A stretch of 64,000 nucleotides of DNA from Fibrobacteria bacterium (GTDB lineage: Bacteria > Fibrobacterota > Fibrobacteria > UBA11236): positions 32,034 through 96,033 of the forward strand of contig JAYTHY010000050.1 of the NCBI GenBank assembly GCA_043732185.1. The letters are read 5' to 3'. Positions within the stretch are counted from its first letter, which is position 1; the number at the start of each line of letters is the position of its first letter. Below the pieces are notes generated by a model. It ran no database searches and had not been told where the DNA came from. It worked only from the letters and a program-made list of their open reading frames with translations. The position numbers and the translations under genes were made by a program. This document shows, piece by piece, positions 13,337 through 61,750 of this stretch.

Positions 13337-14389
13337 TCATTCCCCCAGCCATTTCTTAAGGTCGGCATGGAGCAAGGCCACCACGTCCGGCTCTTCCAGG
13401 TTGGTGGCGAGAATCAAGCGGGCCCCGGTATCCAGCCGGGCGTCTACCTTTTCCCCGCGCTTGGCAGCCAATGCGGTTTTAACGCCCAGGTAACCCATGC
13501 GAAACGGGTCCTGCACTACCAAGCCGGCTACTTCTCCGGCCTTTAGCGCTTGGAGCAGCGGCTCAGTGGCGTCAAAACCCAACAAATGCACTTTGCCAGC
13601 CCGGCCCGCCACCTGCAATGCGCGCAGCATGCCAAAGGTGGTGGGAGCATTAGGCGTAAACACGCCTTCCACATCCAGAAACTTGTTCAACAAATTCTGC
13701 GAAGTCTTGAGGGCGGACTCGGCTGTTACTCCGGCATATTGATTCGAGGACACCACTTCAACCTTCGGCGCGTACTCTTTGAGACCCTCCAGAAAACCGT
13801 TTTCACGATTGCTGTTGCTGGCAGAACCTTCCAAATATCGCATGACCATCACCTTGCCGGTGGGCTCCTTTGCTTTCCCGGAAGCGGGCCCGCCGCGCGC
13901 CTGTAAAAGATCCGCCATCTGCCGGGCTGCCAGTTTTCCTGCAGCAAAGTTGTCCGTGGCCACGAAGCTGGAAAAAGATTTGGACTTGAGATCGGAATCA
14001 ATAATGACGACGGGTATTCCGCGTTTCACAGCGGCTTCCACCGGACGGGCCAATGCCGTCTCATCTAAAGGGGCAATGACGATAGCATCCAATCCCCGGC
14101 TGGTGAAATTCTGCACCACTTCGATTTGGCCTTTGCGATCGTCTTCTTTGGCCGGGCCTTGCCAGATGATGTCGGCGCCTTCCTCTTGACCGGCCTTCAT
14201 GGCTCCGGCATGCACCGTTTTCCAGAATTCATGCGTCGTGCCTTTGGGAATGACGGCAACCACTGGCCGAGTAGGTTTTCCAGAACCTGCCGCCTGGACC
14301 GAGCCGAGTAAAAACGAAGATATGAGGAACAATGCGTTAAAAACCGACTTCTTGATCAAAAAAATCCCCCTGAGAATGTTTAAGGTCAT
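13337..14389 (-). CDS. Sugar ABC transporter periplasmic binding protein (RbsB-like)
   Basis: Signal peptide; IPKGTTHEFW, VATDN, GFD, VVQDPFRMGY. Confidence 0.93.
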   Translation of the reverse strand: MTLNILRGIFLIKKSVFNALFLISSFLLGSVQAAGSGKPTRPVVAVIPKGTTHEFWKTVHAGAMKAGQEEGADIIWQGPAKEDDRKGQIEVVQNFTSRGLDAIVIAPLDETALARPVEAAVKRGIPVVIIDSDLKSKSFSSFVATDNFAAGKLAARQMADLLQARGGPASGKAKEPTGKVMVMRYLEGSASNSNRENGFLEGLKEYAPKVEVVSSNQYAGVTAESALKTSQNLLNKFLDVEGVFTPNAPTTFGMLRALQVAGRAGKVHLLGFDATEPLLQALKAGEVAGLVVQDPFRMGYLGVKTALAAKRGEKVDARLDTGARLILATNLEEPDVVALLHADLKKWLGE

Positions 14390-14418
14390 GGCCTCATGGC
14401 CTCATAGCCTCATGGTCT
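14387..14418. repeat. Four-copy 8-bp tandem repeat (CATGGCCT consensus) over the binding-protein start
   Basis: CATGGCCT CATGGCCT CATAGCCT CATGGTCT read directly. Confidence 0.85.
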
Positions 14419-14569
14419 AGAGGCCGGGCGGGTACCACCAATGCCCTATAAAGTTACAAATTTAGGCCATAAATGTGGGTAACGGGAAGGTCACCCTAGC
14501 CTTCCAAAACCCAATTTTACCCGGGCCAATGCAGGGGGAAAATCGGCCGGTTGGAGTTAGTTTTAGGCA

Positions 14570-48937: not shown

Positions 48938-49726
48938 ATGGCGAGAAAACACAAACATCCGGAACACGTCAACCACGAACGGTGGTTGATATCCTATGCG
49001 GATTTTATCACACTGCTTTTTGCCACTTTCGTTGCCCTATACGCCTTAAGCAAATCCGACGCGAGCAAAGCTCAAGTAGTGGCTGAATCCATGCGCATTT
49101 CCTTTGGCGCCCAGGACGGTAAAATGATCCCGCAGGAAGCGTTCAATCCTCAGGCCGTCCCTTCCAGCCATCCCAAACCTATCCCTGGAGATACGAGTAT
49201 TCCCTCTCCACCTCAGCCCCGCAAAGAAGCGGGCAAAGAACAATTTGATGAAATAAAAAAGGAAGTGGAAGAATATTTGATGACCAAGGGAATGCTGAAC
49301 AAGGTTTCCGTAGATGTTCAAGAACGTGGTTTGGTCATGAGCCTTAAGGAAGCTGGGTTTTTCGAATCCGGAAAAACCGACATTCGGCAAGAGTCTTACC
49401 AGGTACTAGAGGAAATCGCTAAAAAGATCGCGAAATATCGAAATCCTGTGCGCGTGGAAGGCCATACCGATAATGTTCCCATCCATTCACGCACTTATCC
49501 CACCAATTGGGAGCTGTCTTCAACCCGTGCCACCAACATGGCGCGTTTGCTTACCGACAAATTCGGAGTCCCCCCAGGAAAAGTGTCCGCCACCGGATAC
49601 GGTGAGCATCGACCCACTTCCGAGAACGACACTCCCGCCGGACGAGCACGCAACCGACGTGTCGATTTGGTTTTGCTATCTTCGCAAGCGGAGAAATCAG
49701 AACCTGAATCCATTTCTGAACCGTAA
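48938..49726 (+). CDS. motB: Flagellar stator protein MotB
   Basis: RWLISYADFITLL, VEGHTD, NWELSSTRA, NRRVD. Confidence 0.93.
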   Translation: MARKHKHPEHVNHERWLISYADFITLLFATFVALYALSKSDASKAQVVAESMRISFGAQDGKMIPQEAFNPQAVPSSHPKPIPGDTSIPSPPQPRKEAGKEQFDEIKKEVEEYLMTKGMLNKVSVDVQERGLVMSLKEAGFFESGKTDIRQESYQVLEEIAKKIAKYRNPVRVEGHTDNVPIHSRTYPTNWELSSTRATNMARLLTDKFGVPPGKVSATGYGEHRPTSENDTPAGRARNRRVDLVLLSSQAEKSEPESISEP

Positions 49727-50687
49727 CTCACTGCCACCATTTTTCCTGTTCATCGCTGCCTGTTTCTGGGGCGTGGCTATTCCCGTTATGAAGGTGTTGG
49801 AAAGCGAACAGCATCTTCTCGCACCTGGAGTTGGGTCCATAACCGGATCCGTCGCCTCCTTAGTCGCCCGCTTTACTGGGGCGGCCCTTGTGGTGACACT
49901 TCTCGGAAGGGTATCCCTGTGGAGAATTTCCCGTAGGGAGTGGTTTAACGGTGGCGTTCTCGGACTCATTACAGCCGTCAGCATGGCCTTGCAATTGGAT
50001 GGCCTCAATTACACCAGCGCCTCCACGGCCGGCTTCCTAATCGCCATGTACTGTGTGTTCATTCCTCTTTTCACCTGGGTTTCCGGGCGCAGAAAGATGA
50101 CCCCTATTCTTGCGCTTTGTTGTCTAATGGTCATGGTGGGGATGGTGGTTTTGAGTGGTCTCCATATACAATCGTTTTCTTTAGGCCGCGGCGAATGGGA
50201 AAGTTTGCTTGCCGCCGTTCTTTTCGCCTGCCAAATTCTATGGGTAGATCGACTGTTGCCAGAAAACTATTATCCCTCTCATTTAACCTTTGTACTTTTT
50301 GCCACGGTCTCTATTATTTGCGTCATTAGCTTGGCCTTGCTGCCAGGAAGTTTACCAGTACTCGCCGTCCTCCACTCCTCAATCCGATCCGGAATTTTGA
50401 CTGCCCTTCTAACTGTTTTCGGAACCGCATTGCCATTTCTGATTATGAACCGATTTCAATCCAAAGTAGGCCCCGTAACCGCCGGGTTCATCTACTGCTT
50501 CGAACCAATCACAACTTCGATTGGAGCCTTGTTTCTTCCCAATCTCTTGGGCCGCGCCGGAACCCTTTACGGCAACGAATCCTTCTCCATGCGCCTGGCC
50601 ATTGGCGGTGGACTGGTGCTGGTCGCCAACCTTTTTTTGCTATTGGATCGTCCTCCACAGCCTAACGTGGACAGCACTGTAAAGTAG
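49704..50687 (+). CDS. DMT/EamA family transporter (start uncertain)
   Basis: FWG, ARF, GLNYTSASTAGFL, FEPI; about ten TM helices. Confidence 0.85.
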   Translation: MNPFLNRNSLPPFFLFIAACFWGVAIPVMKVLESEQHLLAPGVGSITGSVASLVARFTGAALVVTLLGRVSLWRISRREWFNGGVLGLITAVSMALQLDGLNYTSASTAGFLIAMYCVFIPLFTWVSGRRKMTPILALCCLMVMVGMVVLSGLHIQSFSLGRGEWESLLAAVLFACQILWVDRLLPENYYPSHLTFVLFATVSIICVISLALLPGSLPVLAVLHSSIRSGILTALLTVFGTALPFLIMNRFQSKVGPVTAGFIYCFEPITTSIGALFLPNLLGRAGTLYGNESFSMRLAIGGGLVLVANLFLLLDRPPQPNVDSTVK

Positions 50688-50694
50688 CTGGACA
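50668..50694. promoter_or_regulatory. Candidate enhancer-binding-protein upstream activator sites (copy 1)
   Basis: TGGACA half-site then TGTAAA-N5-TGGACA; ACGTGGAC shared with 54890-54897. Confidence 0.5.
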
Positions 50695-50743
50695 CGATAC
50701 CTTCCATTTCCAGCGTGATTTCACCTGATTTGCAGGAAAATCC

Positions 50744-50762
50744 ATTGGCCCGATTCTTGATT
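50744..50762 (+). promoter_or_regulatory. Candidate sigma54 -24/-12 promoter, variant -12 (copy 1)
   Basis: ATTGGCCCGATTCTTGATT with exact TGGC-N7-TTG spacing; near-identical copy at 55001. Confidence 0.65.
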
Positions 50763-50804
50763 TACCTGTTTGCGGGCATTCCAACCAAACAAAGGAGGTC
50801 AACA

Positions 50805-51500
50805 ATGTCCGTTTACAATAGACCGCTAAACTCCAAGCCCTTAGGTATACTTGCAGGCATAGGCTTGCTCCTTATCCTACCCGGGTATGCGAGGGCCGAC
50901 CACAATGAAACATCCTATGGCTCCGCCGAAATCACCCTGGGCTTTCCCAATGGGCAGGTTACGGTAGGCAAGACATGGGAAAATCATCCCCGGGAAGTCG
51001 TCGTCGAAGAAGTAACACACCGGTATCCTCAAGACGATCAACAAGATTGGGATAGGGAAAGCCGGGAAAGGGATCACGACCATGAGCGGGAACGCGACCG
51101 GAACCGGGACCGTGATTACGACGACGATGATGATGATGGCAACCAAATCATTATTGAAAAGCACGGCCATCACAATCGGCATAAGCAAGTTGTGATCATT
51201 GAACGATACCGGGAACCGGAGTATTGCGACAGGAGTGAGGAGGTTCGCAGGGTATATGTGCAGCCTCCATGCAACCGTCCTGAAGTAATCGTATACCGTC
51301 AGCCGGAGCGGATCATTTATGCTCCGCAGCGCTATGGTTGCGCGCCGAAGTCATCCGTGATCATCGTCCCTTCTAATCAAGGTTCCAACGAGTATCATGG
51401 GAACGGCAATTCCGGACCTCGGAATCTATTTCCGGAAAACTCGAATCGACCGATGCGCACCCGCGGAGTCCAACATCAGGTAGCCATGGTGGACCGATAG
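50805..51500 (+). CDS. Secreted low-complexity His/Arg/Asp-rich protein (paralog A)
   Basis: AAGGAGG RBS; signal peptide ending ARA; RD/RE dipeptide tract, poly-Asp, V/I-rich short motifs. Confidence 0.8.
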   Translation: MSVYNRPLNSKPLGILAGIGLLLILPGYARADHNETSYGSAEITLGFPNGQVTVGKTWENHPREVVVEEVTHRYPQDDQQDWDRESRERDHDHERERDRNRDRDYDDDDDDGNQIIIEKHGHHNRHKQVVIIERYREPEYCDRSEEVRRVYVQPPCNRPEVIVYRQPERIIYAPQRYGCAPKSSVIIVPSNQGSNEYHGNGNSGPRNLFPENSNRPMRTRGVQHQVAMVDR

Positions 51501-51516
51501 TTACTTGAAATTCCAG

Positions 51517-51549
51517 GGGGCGGACGCATCCGCGAAGGAGGACCGCCCC
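51517..51549 (+). other. GC-rich intergenic hairpin without U-tract
   Basis: GGGGCGG...CCGCCCC stem with inner TCC-GCGAA-GGA. Confidence 0.5.
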
Positions 51550-51624
51550 TATCTCAAAACATTTTCAAAAAAATCTAACTGAAAATCTCTAGAACAAAAG
51601 TTCGCACCAGGAAAGGATGAAGTC

Positions 51625-52851
51625 ATGAAGAAGTCAATGAGGAAATCAAAAAGTAAGAATGCGCAAAACCAGATTCTAATCCGAACCCTGGCGATGGCGG
51701 CGTTATTGAGCGGTTTAGTTTTTCCACTATTGACCCAAGCTCAGGATGGAAATGTCACAGGTGAAATTGTATCGCTGGGAAAGAAAACCGGCGTTGGAGC
51801 TCGAGCATTAGGTCTAGGAGAAGCATTCACGGCTGTGGCCGATGATTATACCGCCCTCTACTATAATCCCGCCGGCATGACCCAATTGGAGCATTCCGAA
51901 ATCGGACTCAATCTAAGTTACGGTCTCTTTCAGAATACCACTTCTTTTTCCGGGAACAGCCCTAGTGTGCGAACCCTGGAAGCCACCAAGCTGAACGCAT
52001 TGAGTATGGTGATGACCGATGGCGGACGCTGGGCTCTGGGCCTTGGCTATTACACGCCCACCTCCTTCAACGATCCTTTGAATTACTCCGCGCGCGGCAG
52101 CGAGTATGTGTACGATGCCTCGGGCCAAATGGATCATTATCGGATGGGATTGGCGTATAGTATTTCCAATGCCGTGAGCCTGGGCTTGGCGGTGGGAGCG
52201 ATAAGTGGACAGGAGCAGGTAGAAATCCAGGACGGGACTACCGTACGATACCTGGAAGAGTATACCGGTTACAATGTGGAGCCGTCCTTTTTATTCCACT
52301 TGTCAGAATTCTTCAGCGTGGGAGGTTCTGCCGTAGTAATGGAAAGACTGGAACTGGTCGATACCTATCAGGAAAAAGGTGGGCAGCCACTGGAAACCCT
52401 CTATGACATCCATCATCCTTTCCAAGCCAAACTCGGCTTTGCCATTCAAAGCGGGATGACGCAGTTTTCGGCGGATTGGCACGGCGACTTTTGGAGCAGT
52501 TATCAATATTCAAATGCCGGCGCAGCCTTTATGGCCCATGATGTCTATTACCCCAACCGGCATACCTTGAACCTGGGACTGGAACAACATATCTCCAAGC
52601 ATGGTCCAATTTTAAGAGTCGGGTACACCTGGGAAAACCAGGATGGCGTGAGGCCGCAGCCGAATACCAACGACCCGTACCGTTTAAGTGTGGGCATGGG
52701 TTTTGTCCCTTCCCACCGAGTCGGCCTGGATATCGCCTATCAATACGGGGCCAACACTGCGGTCCAGAATTCCCTGCCAGGCGGTCCCAGCGATTTGAAT
52801 ATTGCGGGAGAACAGCAGCAGGTGATGGCCTCCCTGCGGTTTCGCTGGTAG
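51625..52851 (+). CDS. OmpP1/FadL-family outer-membrane beta-barrel
   Basis: Signal peptide; GARALGLGEAFTAVADDYTALYYNPAG; terminal aromatic beta-signal LRFRW. Confidence 0.85.
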   Translation: MKKSMRKSKSKNAQNQILIRTLAMAALLSGLVFPLLTQAQDGNVTGEIVSLGKKTGVGARALGLGEAFTAVADDYTALYYNPAGMTQLEHSEIGLNLSYGLFQNTTSFSGNSPSVRTLEATKLNALSMVMTDGGRWALGLGYYTPTSFNDPLNYSARGSEYVYDASGQMDHYRMGLAYSISNAVSLGLAVGAISGQEQVEIQDGTTVRYLEEYTGYNVEPSFLFHLSEFFSVGGSAVVMERLELVDTYQEKGGQPLETLYDIHHPFQAKLGFAIQSGMTQFSADWHGDFWSSYQYSNAGAAFMAHDVYYPNRHTLNLGLEQHISKHGPILRVGYTWENQDGVRPQPNTNDPYRLSVGMGFVPSHRVGLDIAYQYGANTAVQNSLPGGPSDLNIAGEQQQVMASLRFRW

Positions 52852-52872
52852 GATTTAACGACATCTAAGCCC

Positions 52873-52935
52873 TTTCAAGAGTTTTCATGAATTTTCTTGA
52901 TCTTTCTTGATATTGCTTGAAACAGGAGTTAGACT
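52873..52935 (+). promoter_or_regulatory. Sigma70 promoter with 10-bp phased operator boxes for the TA operon
   Basis: TTGATA-N17-TAGACT-N6-ATG; TCAAGA/TCATGA/TCTTGA/TCTTGA/GCTTGA at 10-bp period. Confidence 0.6.
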
Positions 52936-52941
52936 AATACC

Positions 52942-53154
52942 ATGAAACCCGTTAAATTCGCTTCCCAGGTTGATGCCAAAGTACTGCGTGAGTTGCGCGC
53001 TTATGCCGAGCAAACCGATCGCAGCATTTCCAGCGTGGTTACCGAGGCCTTGGCTGAATATTTGGCCAAGGCACACATCCGCCCAGCTTTCCAGGCCTCT
53101 ATGGATGAAGTTTTGGTCGAACATGCTGAATTATTGAGCCGACTGGCCAAGTGA
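52942..53154 (+). CDS. Ribbon-helix-helix (CopG-like) antitoxin
   Basis: KFASQVD strand plus two helices; C-terminal ELLSRLAK typical of Doc-partner antitoxins; GTGA overlap. Confidence 0.85.
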   Translation: MKPVKFASQVDAKVLRELRAYAEQTDRSISSVVTEALAEYLAKAHIRPAFQASMDEVLVEHAELLSRLAK

Positions 53155-53528
53155 AACTGACAAAATTTCCGACTTTGGAGGAATGCTTGATGCTTCACCA
53201 GGCTTTGCTCAAACGCTTTGGGGGCCAATCTGGCATTCGCGATCAGGGCCTATTAGAAAGTGCCTTGGCGCGGCCACGTTCGGGATATTATACATCGCTT
53301 TCCGAGCAAGCGGCCGCGCTGATGCAAAGCCTGGCCCTCTATTCCAGTATTGTCGATGGCAATAAGCGGGTTGCTTTTGCGATGACGGCCATTTTTTTGA
53401 GAATGAATGGCTGGCGTTTTGTCCTGACTGCCGATGAAGGGGAGGCCTTTCTAATCGGTAGCGTCATTGAGGCTAAAGCCGATGTCAAAGAAATCGCAAT
53501 TTGGATTGAAGGCAAAATGAAGGAGTAG
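53151..53528 (+). CDS. doc: Doc/Fic family toxin with degenerate catalytic motif
   Basis: GIRDQGLLESALARP, DGNKRVAF; the His motif reads YSSIVDGNKR. Confidence 0.85.
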   Translation: MKLTKFPTLEECLMLHQALLKRFGGQSGIRDQGLLESALARPRSGYYTSLSEQAAALMQSLALYSSIVDGNKRVAFAMTAIFLRMNGWRFVLTADEGEAFLIGSVIEAKADVKEIAIWIEGKMKE

Positions 53529-53566
53529 AATGTGCAGCAGATTTTTCATCAAGGCTGCCATACTCG

Positions 53567-54805
53567 TTATGGGGATTTGATCTGACGACGGATAAATGCG
53601 CCAAGCAACGGAACGGCGAAAGAGTATCTTCCATGCCGGTTTTTGTAGATAAGCCCCGCTTCCGCCAAAGTGGCCAACAATTGGGTGATGTGACTGGCAC
53701 TGAATGGCTTTTTAAGTGACTTTCGTGAAGCCTGTTCTATCCCCTGTACAGAAAATTCCACGTCGGCATCTGGAAGCCGGGAGATTAGGATGAGTAGATC
53801 CCTTTGGCGATCCGTCACTTTTGACCAGCGGCCAGAGAAAAAGTCGCTATCAAGCTTCCGTAATATGGCGGGCATAAAAACGGGATGGTTGTGCGTCAAG
53901 GCTTCGGGGCTTTGGCGCAACACGTCAAACGCTTCACGGCCCAGAAATTGGATAAAATAAGGATAGCCACCTGATTCAAAGATAAGTTGGGTCATCAAAC
54001 TCGAATCGAAACGGACAGGGCTACCCTTTACCGCAATTGGTTTTGAAAATGCTTCTTTAGCGAAATTTTCTTCGAGACGATCGAGGAAAAGCACTCGGAA
54101 CATGCGTTCAGCAAAGGTTCTGGCGTCTACCAATTTTGGAAACAATGTTGGCAATCCTGAAAGCCAAAGCATGAATGGGATCCCTTTGCGCTGAATCGAT
54201 TGGAAGACGTCGAGTAACAAGGAAAGTGGATACTCCTCCTTGGCGGCATGATCGGATAAGATTTGGGCTTCATCATATGCGAATACGACGCCTTTAATTC
54301 CGTGGAGAGACACGGCCGACCATACCATTTCGAGCACGTATTTCAGCTTGTCGGCACTGAGTCCCGGCGTGCTTTCGTAGACTTCGACCAAAGTATTGTA
54401 ATCGAGTTGGACCGAGCGTACCGTTTTCTTGGCCGTAAAACCCAGACTGCGAACAGGTTCACCTTTCACAGAAAACAGGGATGCGATGGGTGCTAGATCT
54501 GCCAGCAAACGGGTGGCAATATTGTTTTCGCTCAGACTGGCCGCCTCCGACAAATCTGTACCCACCCAAAGCCAACCATGGTCGATTGCCAATGGTTTCA
54601 TTTTCTCCATCAGAACCGTTTTGCCCACACCGCGAAGACCCGTCACCACCAAGTTTTCCAGAATGATTTTTTGATCCAATAGCCGGGTGATTTCGGCAAC
54701 GGAGGTTTCACGTCCCGCCAGGAACGGAGGCATATGCCCCGCACCCGGGCGAAACGGGTTTTCGAAATCATCCGGAATGGCTGTTTTTAAATTAGAAACT
54801 TTCAT
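53567..54805 (-). CDS. P-loop ATPase (AAA_16-like) with C-terminal winged helix
   Basis: NPFRPGAG...LAGRE, GLRGVGKT, YDEAQ, SGGYPYFIQ, LAEAGLIY...GRYSF. Confidence 0.88.
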   Translation of the reverse strand: MKVSNLKTAIPDDFENPFRPGAGHMPPFLAGRETSVAEITRLLDQKIILENLVVTGLRGVGKTVLMEKMKPLAIDHGWLWVGTDLSEAASLSENNIATRLLADLAPIASLFSVKGEPVRSLGFTAKKTVRSVQLDYNTLVEVYESTPGLSADKLKYVLEMVWSAVSLHGIKGVVFAYDEAQILSDHAAKEEYPLSLLLDVFQSIQRKGIPFMLWLSGLPTLFPKLVDARTFAERMFRVLFLDRLEENFAKEAFSKPIAVKGSPVRFDSSLMTQLIFESGGYPYFIQFLGREAFDVLRQSPEALTHNHPVFMPAILRKLDSDFFSGRWSKVTDRQRDLLILISRLPDADVEFSVQGIEQASRKSLKKPFSASHITQLLATLAEAGLIYKNRHGRYSFAVPLLGAFIRRQIKSP

Positions 54806-54845
54806 TTATTATACTAAATTTATAATAAAGACTAAATAAAGTCAA
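54805..54845 (-). promoter_or_regulatory. Sigma70 promoter and palindromic operator of the ATPase gene
   Basis: Minus strand TTGACT-N17-TAAATT; perfect palindrome TTTATTATA-N7-TATAATAAA at 54805-54829. Confidence 0.55.
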
Positions 54846-54881
54846 TCAGCTAATAGCATCGTATGAATCACGCATCTACCC

Positions 54882-54930
54882 TGTCCACCACGTGGACCGA
54901 AAAACCCCTTGCCCGTCCACCAAATTACCA
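54882..54930. promoter_or_regulatory. Candidate enhancer-binding-protein upstream activator sites (copy 2)
   Basis: TGTCCA-N5-TGGACC and CGTCCA-N5-TTACCA, 32 bp apart. Confidence 0.55.
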
Positions 54931-55000
54931 GATGAATCCCTGCCCTACCTCTTTTCAAGTGATTTTTAGCCCTCACCTTCGCAGTTTCCCCCCTTTTTCA

Positions 55001-55019
55001 ATTGGCCCGATATTTGATT
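55001..55019 (+). promoter_or_regulatory. Candidate sigma54 -24/-12 promoter, variant -12 (copy 2)
   Basis: ATTGGCCCGATATTTGATT, 17/19 identical to 50744-50762. Confidence 0.65.
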
Positions 55020-55054
55020 AATGGATACTGCATCACCCTTTCAGGAGACCCAGT

Positions 55055-55435
55055 ATGCATCACTTCACAAAATCGACCGGATCCATTCGCAATACCCGCA
55101 CCCTCGGCTTTTTCCTCGCCGCCCTCTTGTGCCCGCTTAGCCTGAACTTGGCCCTGGCAAACGAACATCGTCGCCCAGTCCAAGTTACGGCAACATCCGG
55201 ACACGTGGAAGTGGTGCATCAAGTTCCCGGAGGCACCATTGTCGTCGGTGTGGACTTCGGCCGAACCGCCCACCGTGATCGGGATGTTACTATTATCCGC
55301 GAAATACCGCGCAACGAAGTCACGGTTGTTAAAACCGTCAGGCATGGTCGATGTGGGAAAAAGGTTACCGTGATCGAAACCTATGAAAGACATGACAAAC
55401 ATCGTCATCATCGGGACTCCTACGCCAGTCGGTGA
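55055..55435 (+). CDS. Small secreted His/Arg-rich protein (paralog B)
   Basis: AGGAG RBS; signal peptide ending ALA; shares G-x2-E-x5-P-x-G-x3-VG with paralog A. Confidence 0.75.
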   Translation: MHHFTKSTGSIRNTRTLGFFLAALLCPLSLNLALANEHRRPVQVTATSGHVEVVHQVPGGTIVVGVDFGRTAHRDRDVTIIREIPRNEVTVVKTVRHGRCGKKVTVIETYERHDKHRHHRDSYASR

Positions 55436-58074
55436 AAACCGGTTTGCGTACTCTCGGCCCCTCTCGAACCCCTGGCTCCGAATCGTCTGGACCAGGGGTT
55501 TTTGCTATGTTTTATTGCATACAGACCTTCATCCGACACTTCAGCGCATGGGCTCTCGCGAGTCTTGTTCTCTGCGTCTTGCCCGCCGCCGCCAAAGTTC
55601 CCATCCCCGATATCCGCGACAGCTATGGTGTTGCCTTGGCGGACTTCGACGGTGATGGACTGCTCGATGTGTATATGGTCGGTTTCCGCACACTGAACAG
55701 ATTGCTCATCAACAATGGTGACGGAACCTTTCGCGACAAAAGCATTTCCGCCGGTGTTGGCGGCAACTTGACGCCGCAAGGCATACGCAATTTGGAACTC
55801 GGTGCCAGCGCCGTGGACTTTGACAATGACGGGGCCGTGGATATCCTTATCTGCGGTTGGGGTGAAGCCTTGGATCTTTTAAAGAATCGTAAAGACGGGA
55901 CGTTCGTGTCCGTCTCCCGGCGCGTGGGACTGATGCGTAACACAGACGCCAATATGGGAGTGTGGGCCGACCTGGACCAGGATGGCTACCTCGACTTGTT
56001 GCTAACCAATGAACAGGGTCCTGTACGACTCTATCGGAACGATCATGGCATTCGCTTCGTACCCATTTCCCTCGACAGCGCAGGCATTGCCTCCGATTCT
56101 GGATCCCAGGGAGCGCTTTGGTCCGATCTCGATTTGGACGGGGACCAAGATTTGATTCTCACCGGATGGCATCATTCCCTACGGATTTACGAACAGGTCA
56201 GCCCCTTCAAATTCCGCGAAGTAAACTTGGGCCTAGACTTGCCAGCCGGAATGCGCTGCAATGCCGCATTGTCGGGAGATTTCGACAAAGACGGGGATGC
56301 GGATTTGTTGATCACGGTGCGGCAGGGGACCAATCTTCTGCTTGTGAACCAAGCCAATCCCACATTGACGGCGGATCAACCCAGTGCCTGGCGACCGGTC
56401 CCAAAACCCATTCATTTCCTGGAGAAGGCGCAGGTGCTGGGCTTAAAAGACACCCTGGACAGTTATGGCGGCGCATTTGGGGATTATGACGGGGATGGCG
56501 ATGTGGATCTGTTTCTCACCACGCGAAGTCATAATTACTATTACGAAAATCACAATGGCACATTCATTTCGCGCCCGCTTCGTGACGTCGAAATGGATGA
56601 TGAGGATTCCCGGTACAATACAGGATTCATGTTCGGGGATTTGACACCCGCTCCCGGCGACGAGCGTGTCATCATTTCCAGAGACAGCGCCTCCACCATT
56701 TTAGAAGGACCGAAGCCCGCCTGCCGAAGTTTGAAAATCGTGCTGCGTGGCGTTCACTCCAATCGAAACGGCATAGGCAGTCGCCTTGGAATTTGGGGGC
56801 TGGCTCCAGGACTCGCTGGGCCCAGTTCAGGACCCACTTCAGGCAGCTCTTCAAAGGACACGTGGCGGCAAACGCAAAGCTTTGAAATTCATGGTGGATC
56901 AGGATATCTCAGTTCCTACGTAGGGCCGCTCACGGTTTTTTTACCGGACTCACAAAAGGTAAAGAAACTGAGTGTGCGCTTTCCCAGTGGTAAAACGGTA
57001 ATCCGAACTATTGGCCCAAGCGATACCCTGATTGAAGTTTGGGAAGCTGGACCTGTCAGTGTCGCCTGGGAGCGTGGTGGTCGCGCCGTGTACAACGCGT
57101 TGCGCGATCCCATTTGGCGCCGGAAGATTCTCCTTATCCTGCTTGCGGTGACGGCGATTTTTGTTTTCCTCCGCGCCTTGGTCAAAGCCTTGGCGGGCAA
57201 TATTGCACGCAAGCAATACACGAAAGAATTGGTCGAAAAAAATCGGGAGCTCAACTCGCTGATCGAGGAAGTCAAGCATACCCAGCAGCAGCTTATTCAC
57301 AGCGAAAAATTGGCCGGCTTGGGCCAATTGGTAGCCGGTATCGCCCATGAGCTCAACAATCCCATCGGATTCATTTACGCCAATTTATTCCAGATTCGAA
57401 AATATCTGGACGGGCTGGAAAAAAGGCCCTTGGACGCCGAGTCAGTGGTCATGGTACATAAAATTGATCAAGCCTTACGGGAAAGTCAGGAAGGATCCAT
57501 CCGCATCCGCGACATCGTCCAAAACCTTCGAGGTCTTTCGCGCGCCGGCACTCCAGGTCCAGGAACCGGTCTCGGAAACGTCCTCCACAAACGGCCCTGC
57601 AATATCATCCAAATGCTGGACAAAAGTTTGCTCCTGGCGCAAACCGGTTTCAGCAAGAATATCCGGATCACCAAGGACTATCAGCCCATTCCGCTGATTG
57701 AAGCCGATGAAACCCAAATCCAACAAGTCTTCTTGAACTTGTTCGTGAATGCCGGCCAAGCCATGGGCGAAAAAGGCACGCTACATATCCACACTCACAT
57801 CCAGACCCACACCCACACAGAACAAGATAAAATCGTGATTTCCATCACCGATGAAGGTCCGGGCATCAGTCCGGAAAACCTCCCTCGCCTATTCGAACCC
57901 TTCTTCACAACCAAACCCGTGGGCCAGGGAATTGGCTTGGGGCTGCATATCTGCTATCAAATCCTCACTGCCCATCAAGGCAAAATCGAAGTACGCTCGC
58001 TTCCAGCCCCCGCTCACGGCGCCGAATTTCTAATCCAGTTGCCTTTGCCGCTTACCAAGGAGCCAACCCCCTGA
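55432..58074 (+). CDS. Sensor histidine kinase with extracytoplasmic FG-GAP propeller + ASPIC/UnbV domain
   Basis: Six D-x-D-x-D-G-x-x-D repeats plus a degenerate seventh; SNRNGIGS/GGSGYLS/VRFPSG; one TM; AHELNNP, N/G1/F/G2 boxes; alternative start ATG 55507. Confidence 0.9.
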   Translation: MKTGLRTLGPSRTPGSESSGPGVFAMFYCIQTFIRHFSAWALASLVLCVLPAAAKVPIPDIRDSYGVALADFDGDGLLDVYMVGFRTLNRLLINNGDGTFRDKSISAGVGGNLTPQGIRNLELGASAVDFDNDGAVDILICGWGEALDLLKNRKDGTFVSVSRRVGLMRNTDANMGVWADLDQDGYLDLLLTNEQGPVRLYRNDHGIRFVPISLDSAGIASDSGSQGALWSDLDLDGDQDLILTGWHHSLRIYEQVSPFKFREVNLGLDLPAGMRCNAALSGDFDKDGDADLLITVRQGTNLLLVNQANPTLTADQPSAWRPVPKPIHFLEKAQVLGLKDTLDSYGGAFGDYDGDGDVDLFLTTRSHNYYYENHNGTFISRPLRDVEMDDEDSRYNTGFMFGDLTPAPGDERVIISRDSASTILEGPKPACRSLKIVLRGVHSNRNGIGSRLGIWGLAPGLAGPSSGPTSGSSSKDTWRQTQSFEIHGGSGYLSSYVGPLTVFLPDSQKVKKLSVRFPSGKTVIRTIGPSDTLIEVWEAGPVSVAWERGGRAVYNALRDPIWRRKILLILLAVTAIFVFLRALVKALAGNIARKQYTKELVEKNRELNSLIEEVKHTQQQLIHSEKLAGLGQLVAGIAHELNNPIGFIYANLFQIRKYLDGLEKRPLDAESVVMVHKIDQALRESQEGSIRIRDIVQNLRGLSRAGTPGPGTGLGNVLHKRPCNIIQMLDKSLLLAQTGFSKNIRITKDYQPIPLIEADETQIQQVFLNLFVNAGQAMGEKGTLHIHTHIQTHTHTEQDKIVISITDEGPGISPENLPRLFEPFFTTKPVGQGIGLGLHICYQILTAHQGKIEVRSLPAPAHGAEFLIQLPLPLTKEPTP

Positions 58075-59543
58075 TGACTATGGAAACCCAAAAGCCGACT
58101 ATTCTAATTGTCGACGACGAACCCGCCATTGTGAGCAGCATCATCCGTTCCTTAGAAGACGAGTACAACTGTCTAGGCGCGGCCAATGCTTTGGAAGCGC
58201 GCCAGGTATTCGCCGCCAACCGAATCGTTTGCGTATTGAGTGATCAGCGCATGCCCGGCGAACCTGGATCGGAATTTTTGGCCTGGGTCAAGGAAACGTA
58301 TCCGGAAACGATCCGCATCCTGATCACGGGTTATTCGGATTTCGAATCGGTGGTGGCGGCAGTAAACAAAGGTCAGATCTATCATTTTCTCCACAAACCT
58401 TGGGAACCGATCCATTTGGAAATGGTCATCCGCCAGGCCGTGCAGATGCACGATTTGTCGGCGGAAAATCAACGTCTGCAATCCGAGCTTAAGGTGAGAA
58501 ACCAGCAATTGGAGCGTGAGAACATCCAGCTCAAGGCGGAAACCATTCAGTCCACGTCCGCCTTCAAGGATTTGATCGGCCTTAGCCCACCCATGCAGCG
58601 GCTTAAAACCAAACTCCAAGCTTTACTTCCGTCGCAGAGTACCGTGCTGGTTACGGGGGAATCGGGCACTGGAAAAGAACTGGTAGCCCGGGCGCTTCAT
58701 TTCGGTGGGGCCCGCAAGGATAAAGCCTTCGTGGCCCAGAACTGCGCCGCTTTGCCGGATTCCATTTTGGAGAGTGAACTTTTCGGCCATGTCAAAGGAG
58801 CCTTTACGCATGCGGTGGAAACGCGCATTGGCATCATCGAAAGCGCCCACGGCGGCACTTTGTTTTTGGATGAGGTCGGTGACATGACCTTATCCCTGCA
58901 GGCCAAGGTGTTGCGTTTTCTTCAGGAAGGCGTCATCACCCAAGTAGGCGGCCGAATCGAAAAGCGCGTAGACGTACGGGTTATCGCCGCTACCCACCGC
59001 GATTTGGAAGCCATGGTCGCGGACAAAAGTTTCCGTGAGGACCTGTATTACCGCTTGGCTGTAATCCCTGTGCGCACGCCCGCCTTGCGCGAACGTCGGG
59101 AAGACATTCCCGTATTGGCGGAACATTTTCTGCGCAAGAAAGCCGTCAAGCTTGGAAAAGCAGTGCCAATACTCGCCACTGAGACCTTGACCCTACTCGC
59201 TGCCCACAACTTTCCTGGCAATGTTCGGGAACTGGAAAACGCCCTGGAATACGCCCTCAATATGATCGGTAACAGCAACGTTATCCTACCGGAAGACTTG
59301 CCCGACCGTATTCAAGGGCTGGATAAAAAACCTATCCTCGCAACAGCCACAGACTCTCATGCAGCCGATGCGATTCCTCAGGACCTGCCTTTGGATGCGG
59401 CCATTATGGCCCTGGAAGTAGACTGGATAAACCGGGCCATGCTGGCCTCGGGAGGAAATATTTCCCATGCAGCCAAAGCATTGGGGTTGAGCCGACAAGG
59501 GCTTCACAACAAGCTGGCCAAGCACGGCATCAAGGGCGAGTAG
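58074..59543 (+). CDS. Sigma54-dependent response regulator (REC-AAA+-Fis HTH)
   Basis: [52 protein letters not shown]-terminal HTH. Confidence 0.95.
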
Positions 59544-59545
59544 GG

Positions 59546-61750
59546 TTGCAAAAAATGTTTCCTGTCCAACGGCGGTCACTTCATTTCTGTATTGCCCATA
59601 TCCTTTTGACCGGATTCTCTTTGGCAATGGCAACGACAATGGCAATAACAACGGCAACGGAAATGCCGGATACGGCCGCATTTCATTTGGAAATTTCACC
59701 TTCCGATTCCCTTTCTTCGAACAAAATAAATCTATTGCTCCATCCAAGCTTAGACTCTGCGCATTCGATTCTAGCCAGCCTCCCCGCCTATACGCGGGTG
59801 CGCACGACTCGATTCGGGAGCTGGGACGGGGACTCGGGTATGCTGGTTGGAAGTGAACTTGGCCGTTACCCCCAACTTTACCGCGTTGTGGGCCCGGGTG
59901 CCGTTCGCCAACAATTGACTTTCTTCACCAAACGCATGGCTGGCTTCTATCCCAATCCAAACCCTAGGCAAAAAAATCTGCTCTACATCGAGGATACGGG
60001 CGGCGATGAAGATTTTCACCTCGACTTGTTGAACTTGGCGACGGGAAAAAATCAAAACTTGGGCTGCCCTCCGGGCCGCGTGGAAGGTGTCTTTTGGAAC
60101 GACTCCGGTACGGCTTTCGTCTACGCGCACACCCCCAAGGGAACGGATCGCTGGGATATCCGCCTGGGCCGCGCCGATGGAAAAGACACCCTGCTTCTCT
60201 CTCTGCCCGGTACGTGGTCGCCGATGGATTTGAGCCCCGATGGCAAATACCTGCTGGTGCAGAAATACATTTCCGCTGCGGATGCGGAATTGCATGTGCT
60301 CTCCCTTTCTGACGGCAGTTTGAAGGGCAGTTTGACGCCAGTGCTTCCTCCCGGCCAGCGCGCCCTTTCCGGCAACGCACTTTTTGTGCCTTCTACACTT
60401 GGAAAAAATGGCACATGGGACGTTTGTTTTACTTCCGACTGGGAAGGCGAATTCGTGCGCCTCTACCGGGTCCAGCTCGGAAAAATGAATGTGCCCGCGC
60501 GTCAAGTCCCATTGAGTCAGGCACCCGCAAGTGGTGCACCTGTTCCACTTTCGCTCAATACCAACTGGGATGTGGAATGGGTTAGCGCCAGTCAGGACCG
60601 GAGTCTCCTGGTTTACGCCCTTAACGAAGAGGGGATAAGCAAATTGTATGCATTGCACCTGACCGCAAAACCTGCGGGCTCCCTTAAGCCCAACCTACTC
60701 CCCGGTATTCCCGAAGGCTTGATCGATGGCGTGCATTTCCGGCCTGATTCCAAGCCCTCCCGAGCATTCGCGTTTACTCTTGCAGGCCCAACCTTCCCCG
60801 GCGAAGTTTTCACGTATCGTATGGATGGGCGTGTATCGAAACGTTGGACAAAAAACGAATCCGCAGATTTGCCACCAGAGGCATTTAGTCGGCCTAAGTT
60901 GATCCATTTTCCCAGTTTCGACTCCGTCCTGATCCAAATACCGGCTTGGATGTATAGCCCCAACACCAAGTCCGCCCACGCACCTTTGCCCGTGCTTATC
61001 CTCATCCACGGAGGACCGGAATCCCAGGCCCGACCGGCATTCGACCCGTTTATCCAATATGCGGTGGGGCAATTGGGATTGACCGTGATTCAGCCCAATG
61101 TCCGCGGTTCGTCTGGCTATGGCAAAAGTTGGCAGCAAGCGGACGATGGGTTAAAACGCATGGCCAGTGTCCGGGATATCGGCGCCTTGCTGGACTGGAT
61201 AAAAACGCAACCGGATTTGGATTCGACTCGCATAGCCGTGGCAGGCCGGTCTTATGGCGGCTTCATGGCATTGAGCGCTCTGATTGAATACGGACCGCAG
61301 GGGAAAAACGCAGGGCAATTGCAGAGCCAAAACCAGGGGCGACTGCGCGGAGGGATAAGCACCGTGGGCATCACTCATTTCCCCTCCTTTTTGAAAAAAA
61401 CCAGCGGCTACCGACGCGACCTTCGCCGCGTTGAATACGGGGACGAGCGCATTCCCGCCATGGCAGAGTTCCTCGACAGCATTTCGCCGCTGACCCGTTT
61501 GAATAGGCTGCAAGCCCCGCTGCTCCTATGCCACGGCCGGAACGATCCCCGCGTGCCCTACCAAGAATCGGAAACCATCGCCGCTGCACTCAAAGCAAAA
61601 CAGGTCCCGGTCTGGTTCCTGACTTTTGAACAAGAAGGGCATGCCTTCCGGGATCAAGAAAACCAGCTCATCCACTACCGGGTGATGGCCGAGTTTTTGA
61701 CAAAAGTGCTCGACCTCAAACCCGGTTCTGCACTAAAATTTAGGCGCTGA
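59546..61750 (+). CDS. Exported S9 family (prolyl oligopeptidase/acylaminoacyl) peptidase
   Basis: Propeller region; IHGGPE, PNVRGSSGYG, GRSYGG, GRNDPRV, EGH triad. Confidence 0.92.
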   Translation: MQKMFPVQRRSLHFCIAHILLTGFSLAMATTMAITTATEMPDTAAFHLEISPSDSLSSNKINLLLHPSLDSAHSILASLPAYTRVRTTRFGSWDGDSGMLVGSELGRYPQLYRVVGPGAVRQQLTFFTKRMAGFYPNPNPRQKNLLYIEDTGGDEDFHLDLLNLATGKNQNLGCPPGRVEGVFWNDSGTAFVYAHTPKGTDRWDIRLGRADGKDTLLLSLPGTWSPMDLSPDGKYLLVQKYISAADAELHVLSLSDGSLKGSLTPVLPPGQRALSGNALFVPSTLGKNGTWDVCFTSDWEGEFVRLYRVQLGKMNVPARQVPLSQAPASGAPVPLSLNTNWDVEWVSASQDRSLLVYALNEEGISKLYALHLTAKPAGSLKPNLLPGIPEGLIDGVHFRPDSKPSRAFAFTLAGPTFPGEVFTYRMDGRVSKRWTKNESADLPPEAFSRPKLIHFPSFDSVLIQIPAWMYSPNTKSAHAPLPVLILIHGGPESQARPAFDPFIQYAVGQLGLTVIQPNVRGSSGYGKSWQQADDGLKRMASVRDIGALLDWIKTQPDLDSTRIAVAGRSYGGFMALSALIEYGPQGKNAGQLQSQNQGRLRGGISTVGITHFPSFLKKTSGYRRDLRRVEYGDERIPAMAEFLDSISPLTRLNRLQAPLLLCHGRNDPRVPYQESETIAAALKAKQVPVWFLTFEQEGHAFRDQENQLIHYRVMAEFLTKVLDLKPGSALKFRR

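Follow-up and report, generated by a model that had tools for sequence, protein, structure and literature searches.

The window analysed here, a stretch of 64,000 nucleotides from contig JAYTHY010000050.1 of a Fibrobacteria bacterium, carries a locus that encodes a sensor histidine kinase and an NtrC-type sigma54 activator together with two small secreted proteins (A and B), a FadL-family outer-membrane beta-barrel and an exported S9 serine peptidase. We read this locus as a sigma54 two-component regulon that is under positive autoregulation and directs the production of exported envelope proteins, acting by the mechanism proposed below, and assign this reading a probability of about 60%. Carriers of the regulon were detected in a single clade of uncultured Fibrobacterota, comprising families f1 and f3, and in no other. 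The reading draws on the gene content, the conservation of the promoters and of the sites upstream of them, the co-occurrence of the genes, the paralogy of A and B, the fold predicted for the barrel and the predicted disorder of A; sigma54 dependence and the binding partners are deduced from these comparisons.

The set of genes that an earlier note on this DNA had named, consisting of secreted proteins A and B, barrel, propeller kinase, activator and S9 peptidase, was recovered in full by open reading frame (ORF) listing and Pfam scans of the window (Table 1); families were also scored against NCBIfam cut-offs. The genes are arranged in two units. Unit 1 comprises A and the FadL-family barrel, and unit 2 comprises B, kinase, activator and S9 peptidase. 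The tight coupling described for unit 2 can be read directly in the sequence, with a GTGA junction between B and kinase, a TGATG junction between kinase and activator and a 2-bp gap between activator and peptidase. The kinase may alternatively start at ATG 55507 instead of GTG 55432, the form present in the database being 855 residues long, and the peptidase at ATG 59555 instead of TTG 59546; whichever start codons apply, the intergenic gaps in unit 2 do not exceed 71 bp. For protein A the listed ORF opens at GTG 50715, and ATG 50805 has the ribosome-binding site AAAGGAGG and a signal peptide.

Both units begin with a common promoter-like motif, as had been noticed before. The motif, TTGGCCCGAT(TC/AT)TTGATT, gave exactly two matches in the whole window (at 50745 and 55002), for an expectation of 0.01, and none of 100 shuffles reached two matches. 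Its layout is that of a −24/−12 promoter (TGGC-N7-TTG) with GA in place of the usual GC; with GG at −24 and TTG at −14 to −12 at this spacing, it agrees with the sigma54 class in these positions. Transcription would accordingly start near 50772 for unit 1 and near 55029 for unit 2. Conservation of the motif in relatives, which the earlier note had set as a test, held throughout: TTGG(C/T)C(C/A)CG-N4-TTG(A/T) was present upstream of 11/11 A genes and 10/10 B genes examined (21/21), and the motif was also seen ahead of three further A-type genes. In these 21 promoters the −24 element reads TGGCCCG in 19 cases, TGGCACG in one and TGGTCCG in one, with identical spacing to TTG in all. Across 32 family genomes the pattern TTGGCCCG-N4-TTGAT occurred 47 times, compared to 4 occurrences of a reversed control, and the matches outside the upstream regions of A, B or lipoprotein genes lay mostly within coding regions. 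In a weight matrix built from the 21 A/B promoters, the two window sites, both being members of the training set, scored 32.6 (unit 2) and 32.4 (unit 1). A match on contig C6 of the same genome and similar ones in relatives were rejected as promoters, being located inside coding regions (for example that of an ABC-transporter signature). An assignment of the shared motif to a Bacteroidetes-type sigma70 −7 motif was also considered and, judged by eye, did not fit.

Related palindromes had been described upstream of both promoters. This was borne out for unit 2, where a perfect GTCCA-N5-TGGAC site lies about 105–120 bp upstream of the promoter; for unit 1 only degenerate copies were found. Upstream of orthologous A promoters the palindromes are perfect or carry one mismatch. 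In all, 12/21 A/B upstream regions contained a perfect site and 19/21 a site with at most one mismatch, compared to 1.2% and 3.3%, respectively, of 5000 random 200-nt windows drawn from ten of the same loci. When the host genome (4.46 Mb in 139 contigs) was scanned for the palindrome by itself, 7 perfect sites were found against 5–12 for rearranged controls. The palindrome alone is thus at chance level, and only palindrome and promoter together are informative.

The activator has the complete architecture of the NtrC family, with REC, AAA+ sigma54-interaction and Fis-type HTH domains. In the host genome rpoN is present once, together with 18 strong enhancer-binding proteins, and the canonical promoter TGGYAY-N5-TTGCW matched 35 times, about twice the rough expectation. 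What a sigma54 system requires is therefore in place, in the form of rpoN, an adjacent activator and an enriched upstream palindrome. A further link comes from an operon present in relatives, which encodes a Tyr-rich lipoprotein and a second FadL-type barrel (barrel2). The same palindromes, often in tandem, were found upstream of its TGGTAC-N5-TTGC promoter in three of four relatives, the promoter of the fourth being CGGCAC-N5-TTGC. Their occurrence in front of canonical TTGC promoters connects the palindromes with sigma54 transcription and favours counting the TTGA variant among sigma54 promoters. Judged from these sequence features, it is very likely the activator that drives unit 1 as well as unit 2, its own operon. 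The feedback loop put forward in the earlier note thus gains comparative support from the motif (21/21), the upstream palindrome, the single rpoN and the canonical promoters of relatives. A literature search of open-access papers and bioRxiv found no paper on sigma54 regulation in Fibrobacter. As a separate observation, the sigma54-contact loop of the activator reads GAFTHA in place of GAFTGA in 14/15 orthologs and GSFTHA in the other one; the available part of PMC4641369 includes GAFTHA, from D. vulgaris DVU2894, among the natural variants that are tolerated. This loop variant coexists with a −12 element lacking C in the 21 A/B promoters. The upstream site is, moreover, shared with canonical TTGC promoters.

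A third promoter was located on contig C56 at ~13458–14422 (locus L057, 823–1620), where GATTGGCCCAGAATTTGATTTA is accompanied by the perfect palindrome TGTCCACCCCGTGGACA 73 bp upstream. Its weight-matrix score of 27.2 is independent of the training set, and the next best site of the genome scored 21.6. It precedes a lipoprotein gene with a DUF2807 domain (PF10988, 6.2e-31), for which orthologs were found in 20/41 relatives; promoter and palindrome are conserved at 7/9 ortholog loci examined, and neither was found in L062 and L065. DUF2807 has been merged with DUF4097 and DUF2154 into Toastrack, described in the available part of PMC11237479 as a recurrent envelope-stress partner. The same part regards the Toastrack domain as mostly intracellular (PMC11237479), whereas the DUF2807 protein of the window's genome has a lipoprotein signal. 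The cassette with the second barrel contains, in this order, the Tyr-rich lipoprotein (SGCYTQLYT..., YKSxKRLFS, C-terminal KGRRR), barrel2, with 31–35% identity to the first barrel, and an S9 peptidase, preceded by a canonical sigma54 promoter and GTCCA-N5-TGGAC palindromes. This lipoprotein-barrel2 cassette is absent from the window's genome. One more intergenic copy of the motif, TTGGCCCGCTTCTTGATTAG, was observed in L092 (G013 contig C43, ~166927, minus strand); it has no palindrome within 200 nt and precedes a stand-alone receiver-domain protein of 145 residues.

A full-length ortholog of the kinase was found in 22/41 relatives searched, and a profile of 11 A orthologs detected A in the same 22 genomes. 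G011 has only a C-terminal fragment of the kinase; this unpublished genome is counted in the tallies and no conclusion rests on it. In a search of 296 genomes from the phylum, 23 matched the profile of A/B, all in two families, namely f1 (the window's genome and 21/31 others) and f3 (1/1), with no match in 151 f5 genomes or 46 f13 genomes. Synteny of A, barrel, kinase and activator extends over six genera of f1 and into f3; together with the co-occurrence of A and kinase, this provides the recurring linkage by which the earlier note had proposed to judge the system. In genus g1 the order is A, barrel, B, kinase, activator, contiguous in L037, L041 and L043 and with various inserts in other loci; B was found in this genus only. 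In g2 (L025) the genes run hrpB, motA, motB, A, barrel, kinase, activator, S9, sdhC, sdhA with a single promoter and no B. In g4 (L023, L024, L100), A, barrel and kinase are together and the activator ortholog (62–64% identity) is elsewhere, and in g3 and g5 (L022 and L021, respectively) A, kinase and activator are followed by the Tyr-rich lipoprotein and the second barrel. In f3, A lies at a contig end (L099), and a second contig (L026) begins with barrel, kinase and activator.

The paralogy of A and B that the earlier note had proposed is not visible in BLASTP (E 0.08) and became apparent when profiles of 11 A and 9 B orthologs were compared with each other (probability 97.3%, E 1.9e-11); on this sequence evidence A and B are true paralogs. 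Both are built from a signal peptide, a conserved hairpin and a variable body. The hairpin consensus is HAEITLGFPxGQVTVGxTW in A and SGHVEVVHQ(V/I)PGGxxxVG in B. Protein B of the window carries the hairpin motif SGHVEVVHQVPGGTIVVG and PRxEVTV-type repeats and has no C-terminal tag. Protein A ends in a tag with the family consensus GPRNLFPExxGRPxRxRGVQ (GPRNLFPE..RPMRTRGVQ in the window), and its body is predicted to be disordered, is rich in His, Arg, Asp, Glu and Val and contains two conserved Cys. In composition the A/B family stands out with 6.3% His, 11.8% Arg and 12.2% Val, compared to 2.1, 5.2 and 6.5% in the long ORFs of the genome. The AlphaFold2 (AF2) model of A, computed from 44 sequences, had a mean predicted local distance difference test score (pLDDT) of 53, only the hairpin at residues 39–58 (pLDDT 71–75) and a helix being predicted. 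No family match was obtained for A or B in Pfam and NCBIfam, including CpxP/ZraP-type families. A word-indexed search with A returned 76 clusters, all unnamed or labelled hypothetical and without Pfam domain, and comparison of A with a protein atlas gave a best score of 0.83 and a recognition value of 1604, under useful levels. A profile search of 1.84 billion representatives yielded 67 hits for A/B; three of them, long immunoglobulin-repeat proteins with hairpin-like similarity inside the immunoglobulin domains, were judged spurious. A role of A as cargo of a type IX secretion system (T9SS) was also rejected, there being no sorting-domain match and the barrel being nearer to FadL than to PorV. 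In G023 a second A-like gene (L098, 4651–7180, minus strand) was noticed, with the promoter motif and the tag variant RSAPQRGVQH.

The barrel of the window, proposed to be FadL-like in the earlier note, scored 45.1 bits for PF03349 (cut-off 29.7), and its AF2 model (pLDDT 83.6) retrieved FadL first from the PDB with Foldseek (template modelling (TM) score 0.70–0.73), followed by BamG (0.65), TodX (0.64) and a T9SS entry containing PorV (0.38). Family score and predicted fold together place it in the FadL/OMPP1/TodX family. NCBIfam scores for more specific families remained under the cut-offs (PorV_fam 45.8 vs 90, BamG 33.9 vs 250, PorQ 19.9 vs 220). Orthologs form about 77 clusters, beyond which identity falls to 25%. 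The hatch-like motif is YNPAGM (NPA) in the window barrel and NAA in the ortholog consensus. The tag of A is present in every A gene that is followed by the orthologous barrel. G016, G018 and G021 have the barrel2 type only (34–35% identity), and in the A proteins of G016 (L022) and G018 (L021) the tag is absent or a remnant; G015 and G022 have the barrel1 type only and their A proteins are tagged. The hairpin is kept in all of these A proteins, including those of genomes without an orthologous barrel. Its partner should therefore be common to all carriers, which points first of all to the kinase. The Tyr-rich lipoproteins in front of barrel2 contain the motif YKSxKR(L/V)FS...KG(K/R)R. For a FadL-family barrel that binds a protein there is a precedent in BamG, which binds BamH according to the available part of PMC12611786. 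In L024 (12187–13100, minus strand) two extra small secreted ORFs of 163 and 137 residues were observed between A and barrel, with bodies unrelated to A and the same SSRPSRERG(V/T)QR tag ending.

The kinase has two transmembrane segments around a periplasmic domain of about 506 residues, followed by HisKA and HATPase_c. The highly conserved periplasmic domain consists of six FG-GAP repeats with conserved DxDxDG-type Ca loops and an UnbV_ASPIC-like part, which scored 21.7 bits, below the cut-off of 23.4. Its only relative of solved structure is CRTAC1 (9etn, E 2.2e-9). It shares with CRTAC1/ASPIC-UnbV proteins the FG-GAP_3 repeats and their Ca loops; unlike these, the window domain is fused to a histidine kinase, a fusion that among the matches listed was otherwise seen only in a group of kinases most of which have an added GAF domain. 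The best 120 of 6499 matches to the sensor domain comprised about 40 orthologs from Fibrobacter-type metagenome-assembled genomes, 8 such kinases of about 1016–1062 residues, and, for the rest, non-kinase FG-GAP/ASPIC proteins. The kinases of the GAF-type group (P0121, P0125, P0128, P0130, P0140, P0142, P0148 and P0155) combine FG-GAP and ASPIC, have 31–37% sensor identity, and one of them is labelled Calditrichaeota. A co-fold of kinase residues 53–558 (38-row alignment) with residues 32–76 of A scored 0.00, which speaks neither for nor against binding. In open-access papers and bioRxiv, the literature search found no paper on an FG-GAP propeller sensor kinase of this kind.

The S9 protein has an N-terminal propeller and a C-terminal alpha/beta hydrolase domain, with a predicted catalytic triad in GRSYGG, NDPRV and EGHAF, the residues being assigned by eye in the translation and not by alignment. 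Among proteins of solved structure, it is closest to aminoacyl and acylaminoacyl peptidases and to prolyl oligopeptidase. The gene directly follows the activator in the window, G015 and G023, and barrel2 in G009, G010, G012, G013 and G016; in each of these arrangements it is plausibly co-transcribed with a regulon gene. In G026 the activator is followed by sdhC without an S9 gene between them, and in G022 it is followed by hrpB.

From these features we propose the following mechanism. The NtrC-type activator would bind GTCCA-N5-TGGAC about 50–120 bp upstream of unusual −24/−12 promoters, with GA or GT for GC, and together with sigma54 it would fire three units, namely A-barrel, B-kinase-activator-S9 and the DUF2807 lipoprotein gene. 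Since the activator's own operon is among the targets, this would result in positive feedback. In relatives the activator would also control the Tyr-rich lipoprotein, the second FadL-type barrel and the S9 peptidase, so that all outputs except kinase and activator would be exported envelope proteins. The kinase may read a periplasmic or surface cue via its 506-residue CRTAC1-like Ca-loop propeller. A and B would be disordered secreted accessory proteins; the R-N-L-F...RPxRxRG tag of A may dock A to its cognate FadL-type barrel, or thread A through it, and the conserved hairpin would contact a component common to all carriers, most likely the kinase sensor. The S9 peptidase may turn over disordered A and B. 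Docking or threading of this kind has precedents in PorV and its cargo and in RcsF, which is threaded through the outer-membrane proteins OmpA/C/F, and QseG, CpxP, ZraP and NlpE are accessory proteins that act on their kinases. A circuit that monitors envelope or surface is favoured on account of the phyletic patterns of tag with barrel and of hairpin with kinase and of the BamG-BamH precedent. In its most specific version, A would be held in the FadL barrel by its tag and would report the state of the outer membrane or surface through its hairpin to the propeller kinase, with the S9 peptidase resetting the sensor, which amounts to Rcs-like logic with unrelated parts. Taken as a whole, this version is speculative and rather unlikely. 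If it were true, it would represent an outer-to-inner-membrane signalling device of the Fibrobacterota–Chlorobiota–Bacteroidota group undescribed so far, and a tagged disordered protein with a FadL barrel would constitute a reusable module (A with barrel1, Tyr-rich lipoprotein with barrel2).

A number of observations weigh against the regulon or against single steps of the mechanism. The −12 element of the 21 promoters is TTGA in 17 and TTGT in 4, with TTGC in none; as the usual C is missing from all of them, we infer sigma54 dependence rather than demonstrate it. Working sigma54 promoters with T at the position of the −12 C exist. The best match of the unit 1 upstream region to GTCCA-N5-TGGAC has two mismatches. 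The overlap between B and kinase is limited to the window's species group, with gaps of ~120–180 bp in other relatives. The order S9-sdhC-sdhA was found in 8/8 genomes where the S9 gene was located (including loci L052–L056 and L025), so that the adjacency of S9 and the regulon may be ancestral synteny. The covariation of tag and barrel is based on few, phylogenetically clustered losses in 2 genera. An hhalign comparison of the A family with the Tyr-rich lipoproteins aligned only the RxLF motif/tag, with a probability of 3.4% and E 0.013, which is not significant. In G023 the tagged A-like copy is followed not by a barrel but by a 626-residue Trp/Tyr/His-rich protein with WXXGXW repeats (PF12779, 6.4e-6). 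Finally, a role of the barrel in small-molecule uptake is possible, because its model is nearest to the transporters FadL and TodX.

Other functions may be ascribed to the same genes. The strongest of these alternatives, although still unlikely, is a metal or cation stress loop of the ZraPSR type, in which His- and acid-rich A and B would buffer Zn, Ni, Cu or Ca and the Ca-loop propeller would sense the ion. It would account for the His content of A/B (6.3% as family mean, 20% in one ortholog), for acidic runs such as DYDDDDDD and for the six conserved DxDxDG loops of the sensor, and both regulators resemble the Zra proteins at a level far under the NCBIfam cut-offs (kinase to ZraS 128.1 vs 479 bits, activator to ZraR 294.4 vs 760). 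The His and acidic positions, however, are not conserved, whereas hairpin and tag are; A and B match no CpxP/ZraP-type family, and the genes downstream of the three promoters include no efflux pump, P-type ATPase or metallochaperone. Uptake of a hydrophobic substrate, which we rank next and hold to be improbable, would make the barrel a true FadL/TodX channel and the S9-fold protein an esterase or peptidase acting on the imported compound, with the kinase sensing the substrate and A and B as auxiliary proteins. FadL-type channels are indeed under the control of sigma54 activators in aromatic-degradation operons, the structural matches of the barrel are to transporters (TM 0.64–0.73), its NPA-like hatch motif fits, and the S9 protein also matches the esterase-type families BD-FAE (2.9e-12) and DLH (2.5e-9). 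But no catabolic gene is present in any unit, the ortholog consensus has NAA where the window barrel has NPA, and uptake fails to account for a disordered tagged protein that always precedes the barrel or for the extra tagged ORFs of L024.

Peptide signalling or quorum sensing, with S9 cutting A and B propeptides, a fragment leaving through the barrel and the propeller kinase sensing it, appears quite improbable to us. Small secreted proteins do head putatively self-activated operons, a peptidase is plausibly co-transcribed and the short, strongly conserved hairpin could be the signal. The near invariance of this hairpin across genera gives no sign of strain-specific signals, which disfavours such a system, and a Pfam scan of the locus detected none of the dedicated processing and export proteins of known systems. 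In particular, there are no propeptide processing or export domains as in agr/com systems, and the kinase has a large soluble periplasmic sensor instead of a polytopic receptor. The solved relatives of the S9 protein are aminoacyl/acylaminoacyl peptidases and oligopeptidases, and S9 peptidases of this kind act on short peptides and not as maturation endoproteases. To our knowledge FadL-family barrels serve uptake or protein docking, not export, and the A-type modules of G026 and G022 have no adjoining S9 gene. The least probable of the alternatives, and in our view very improbable, is a surface adhesion or matrix programme in which A, B and the Tyr-rich lipoprotein would be adhesive or fibre-forming, placed by the barrels, and the DUF2807 protein an adhesin-like beta-helix. 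Tandem PRRxVT(V/I)I strand-turn repeats in B orthologs, the richness of the barrel2 partner in Tyr, Arg and Gly and the Pfam description of DUF2807 as a putative adhesin head domain point in this direction; against it, the repeats are few and short in the window B, the AF2 model of A shows no repeat fold and the Pfam scan of the locus revealed no known component of fibre secretion or nucleation.

Among the described systems closest to the regulon proposed here is QseE/QseG/QseF (GlrK/GlrR) of Enterobacteriaceae, which, in the available part of PMC6075780, is likewise a sigma54-dependent two-component system with an exported accessory protein from the same operon and an envelope output. QseG acts on the kinase QseE in the periplasm and the output is envelope homeostasis (same part of PMC6075780). 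It differs in that QseG is a lipoprotein unrelated in sequence to A and B, the QseE sensor is small and helical and there is no barrel or peptidase; the comparison was made by NCBIfam scores only (activator to GlrR 301.6 bits, cut-off 763). In ZraPSR and CpxP/CpxAR, a small periplasmic protein induced by the regulator feeds back on the kinase, and ZraR is a sigma54 activator at an upstream palindrome. By contrast, A and B are without family match and predicted to be disordered, and kinase and activator miss the cut-offs for ZraS and ZraR by a wide margin. With BamG-BamH and PorV-cargo of Bacteroidota the window barrel has the FadL fold in common, and a disordered protein, either secreted or lipidated, that carries a short conserved motif always stands ahead of it; the window barrel is far below the respective cut-offs, A has no T9SS C-terminal domain, and binding of A to the barrel is suggested by the comparison only. 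RcsF threaded through OmpA/C/F may serve as an analogy for A and its barrel. The statement of the earlier note that no described system has these parts agrees with our searches of open-access papers and bioRxiv.

The regulatory logic is textbook, being that of an autoregulated two-component system whose sigma54 activator is paired with an upstream palindrome. Three parts are uncharacterised, namely a secreted disordered family without Pfam or NCBIfam model, a CRTAC1-like propeller as kinase sensor, and the recurrent association of FadL-family barrels with disordered proteins that bear a motif tag. Should this association mean that the protein is docked to the barrel or threaded through it, the use of FadL barrels to hold proteins would extend from the beta-barrel assembly machinery and T9SS of Bacteroidota to signalling in Fibrobacterota. 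With its three promoters and their putative operators the compact regulon should be tractable in heterologous reporters despite the uncultured host.

Table 1. Coordinates of the genes and putative regulatory elements of the locus (window positions) and of the second cassette in relatives (locus positions).
Feature	Position	Strand	Remarks
Putative degenerate activator sites, unit 1	50608-50693		half-sites GTGGAC 50608-50613, CTCCAC 50653-50658, GTGGAC 50667-50672, TGGAC 50689-50693; in 3' end of EamA gene
−24/−12-type promoter, unit 1	50745-50762	+	TTGGCCCGATTCTTGATT; GG 50747-50748, GA 50759-50760
Protein A	50805-51500	+	231 residues, signal peptide; no Pfam/NCBIfam family
FadL-family outer-membrane beta-barrel	51625-52851	+	408 residues, signal peptide; PF03349 6.2e-12
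RHH antitoxin	52942-53154		plus strand; inserted between barrel and B
Doc/Fic toxin	53151-53528		plus strand; 4-bp overlap with RHH antitoxin
AAA_16/STAND-like ATPase	53567-54805	-	divergent, between toxin and B
Putative activator site, unit 2	54883-54920		perfect GTCCA-CCACG-TGGAC 54883-54897; half-site GTCCAC 54915-54920
−24/−12-type promoter, unit 2	55002-55019	+	TTGGCCCGATATTTGATT
Protein B	55055-55435	+	126 residues, signal peptide; no family match
Sensor histidine kinase	55432-58074	+	FG-GAP_3 x6 (3.5e-33), HisKA, HATPase_c
NtrC-type sigma54 activator	58074-59543	+	REC PF00072 4e-16, Sigma54_activat PF00158 4.3e-66, HTH_8 PF02954 1.7e-9
Exported S9 serine peptidase	59546-61750	+	PF00326 1e-34, PF02897 1.1e-6
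Second cassette, L017	17700-19692
Second cassette, L018	18400-19900
Second cassette, L021	13470-15488
Second cassette, L022	13290-17320

Units 1 and 2 are split in the window by the RHH-Doc toxin-antitoxin pair and the AAA_16 ATPase (52942–54805). The close relatives L036, L005 and L006 also have this insert, whole or in part; three relatives of the same genus lack it (L037, L041 and L043), these being the loci in which A, barrel, B and kinase are contiguous. The locus is flanked by hrpB, motA, motB and an EamA transporter gene upstream and by sdhC and sdhA downstream. The EamA ORF as listed (49473–50687, 404 residues) shares about 250 nt with the end of motB; its true start is probably well downstream, since relatives align only from residue ~75–83.

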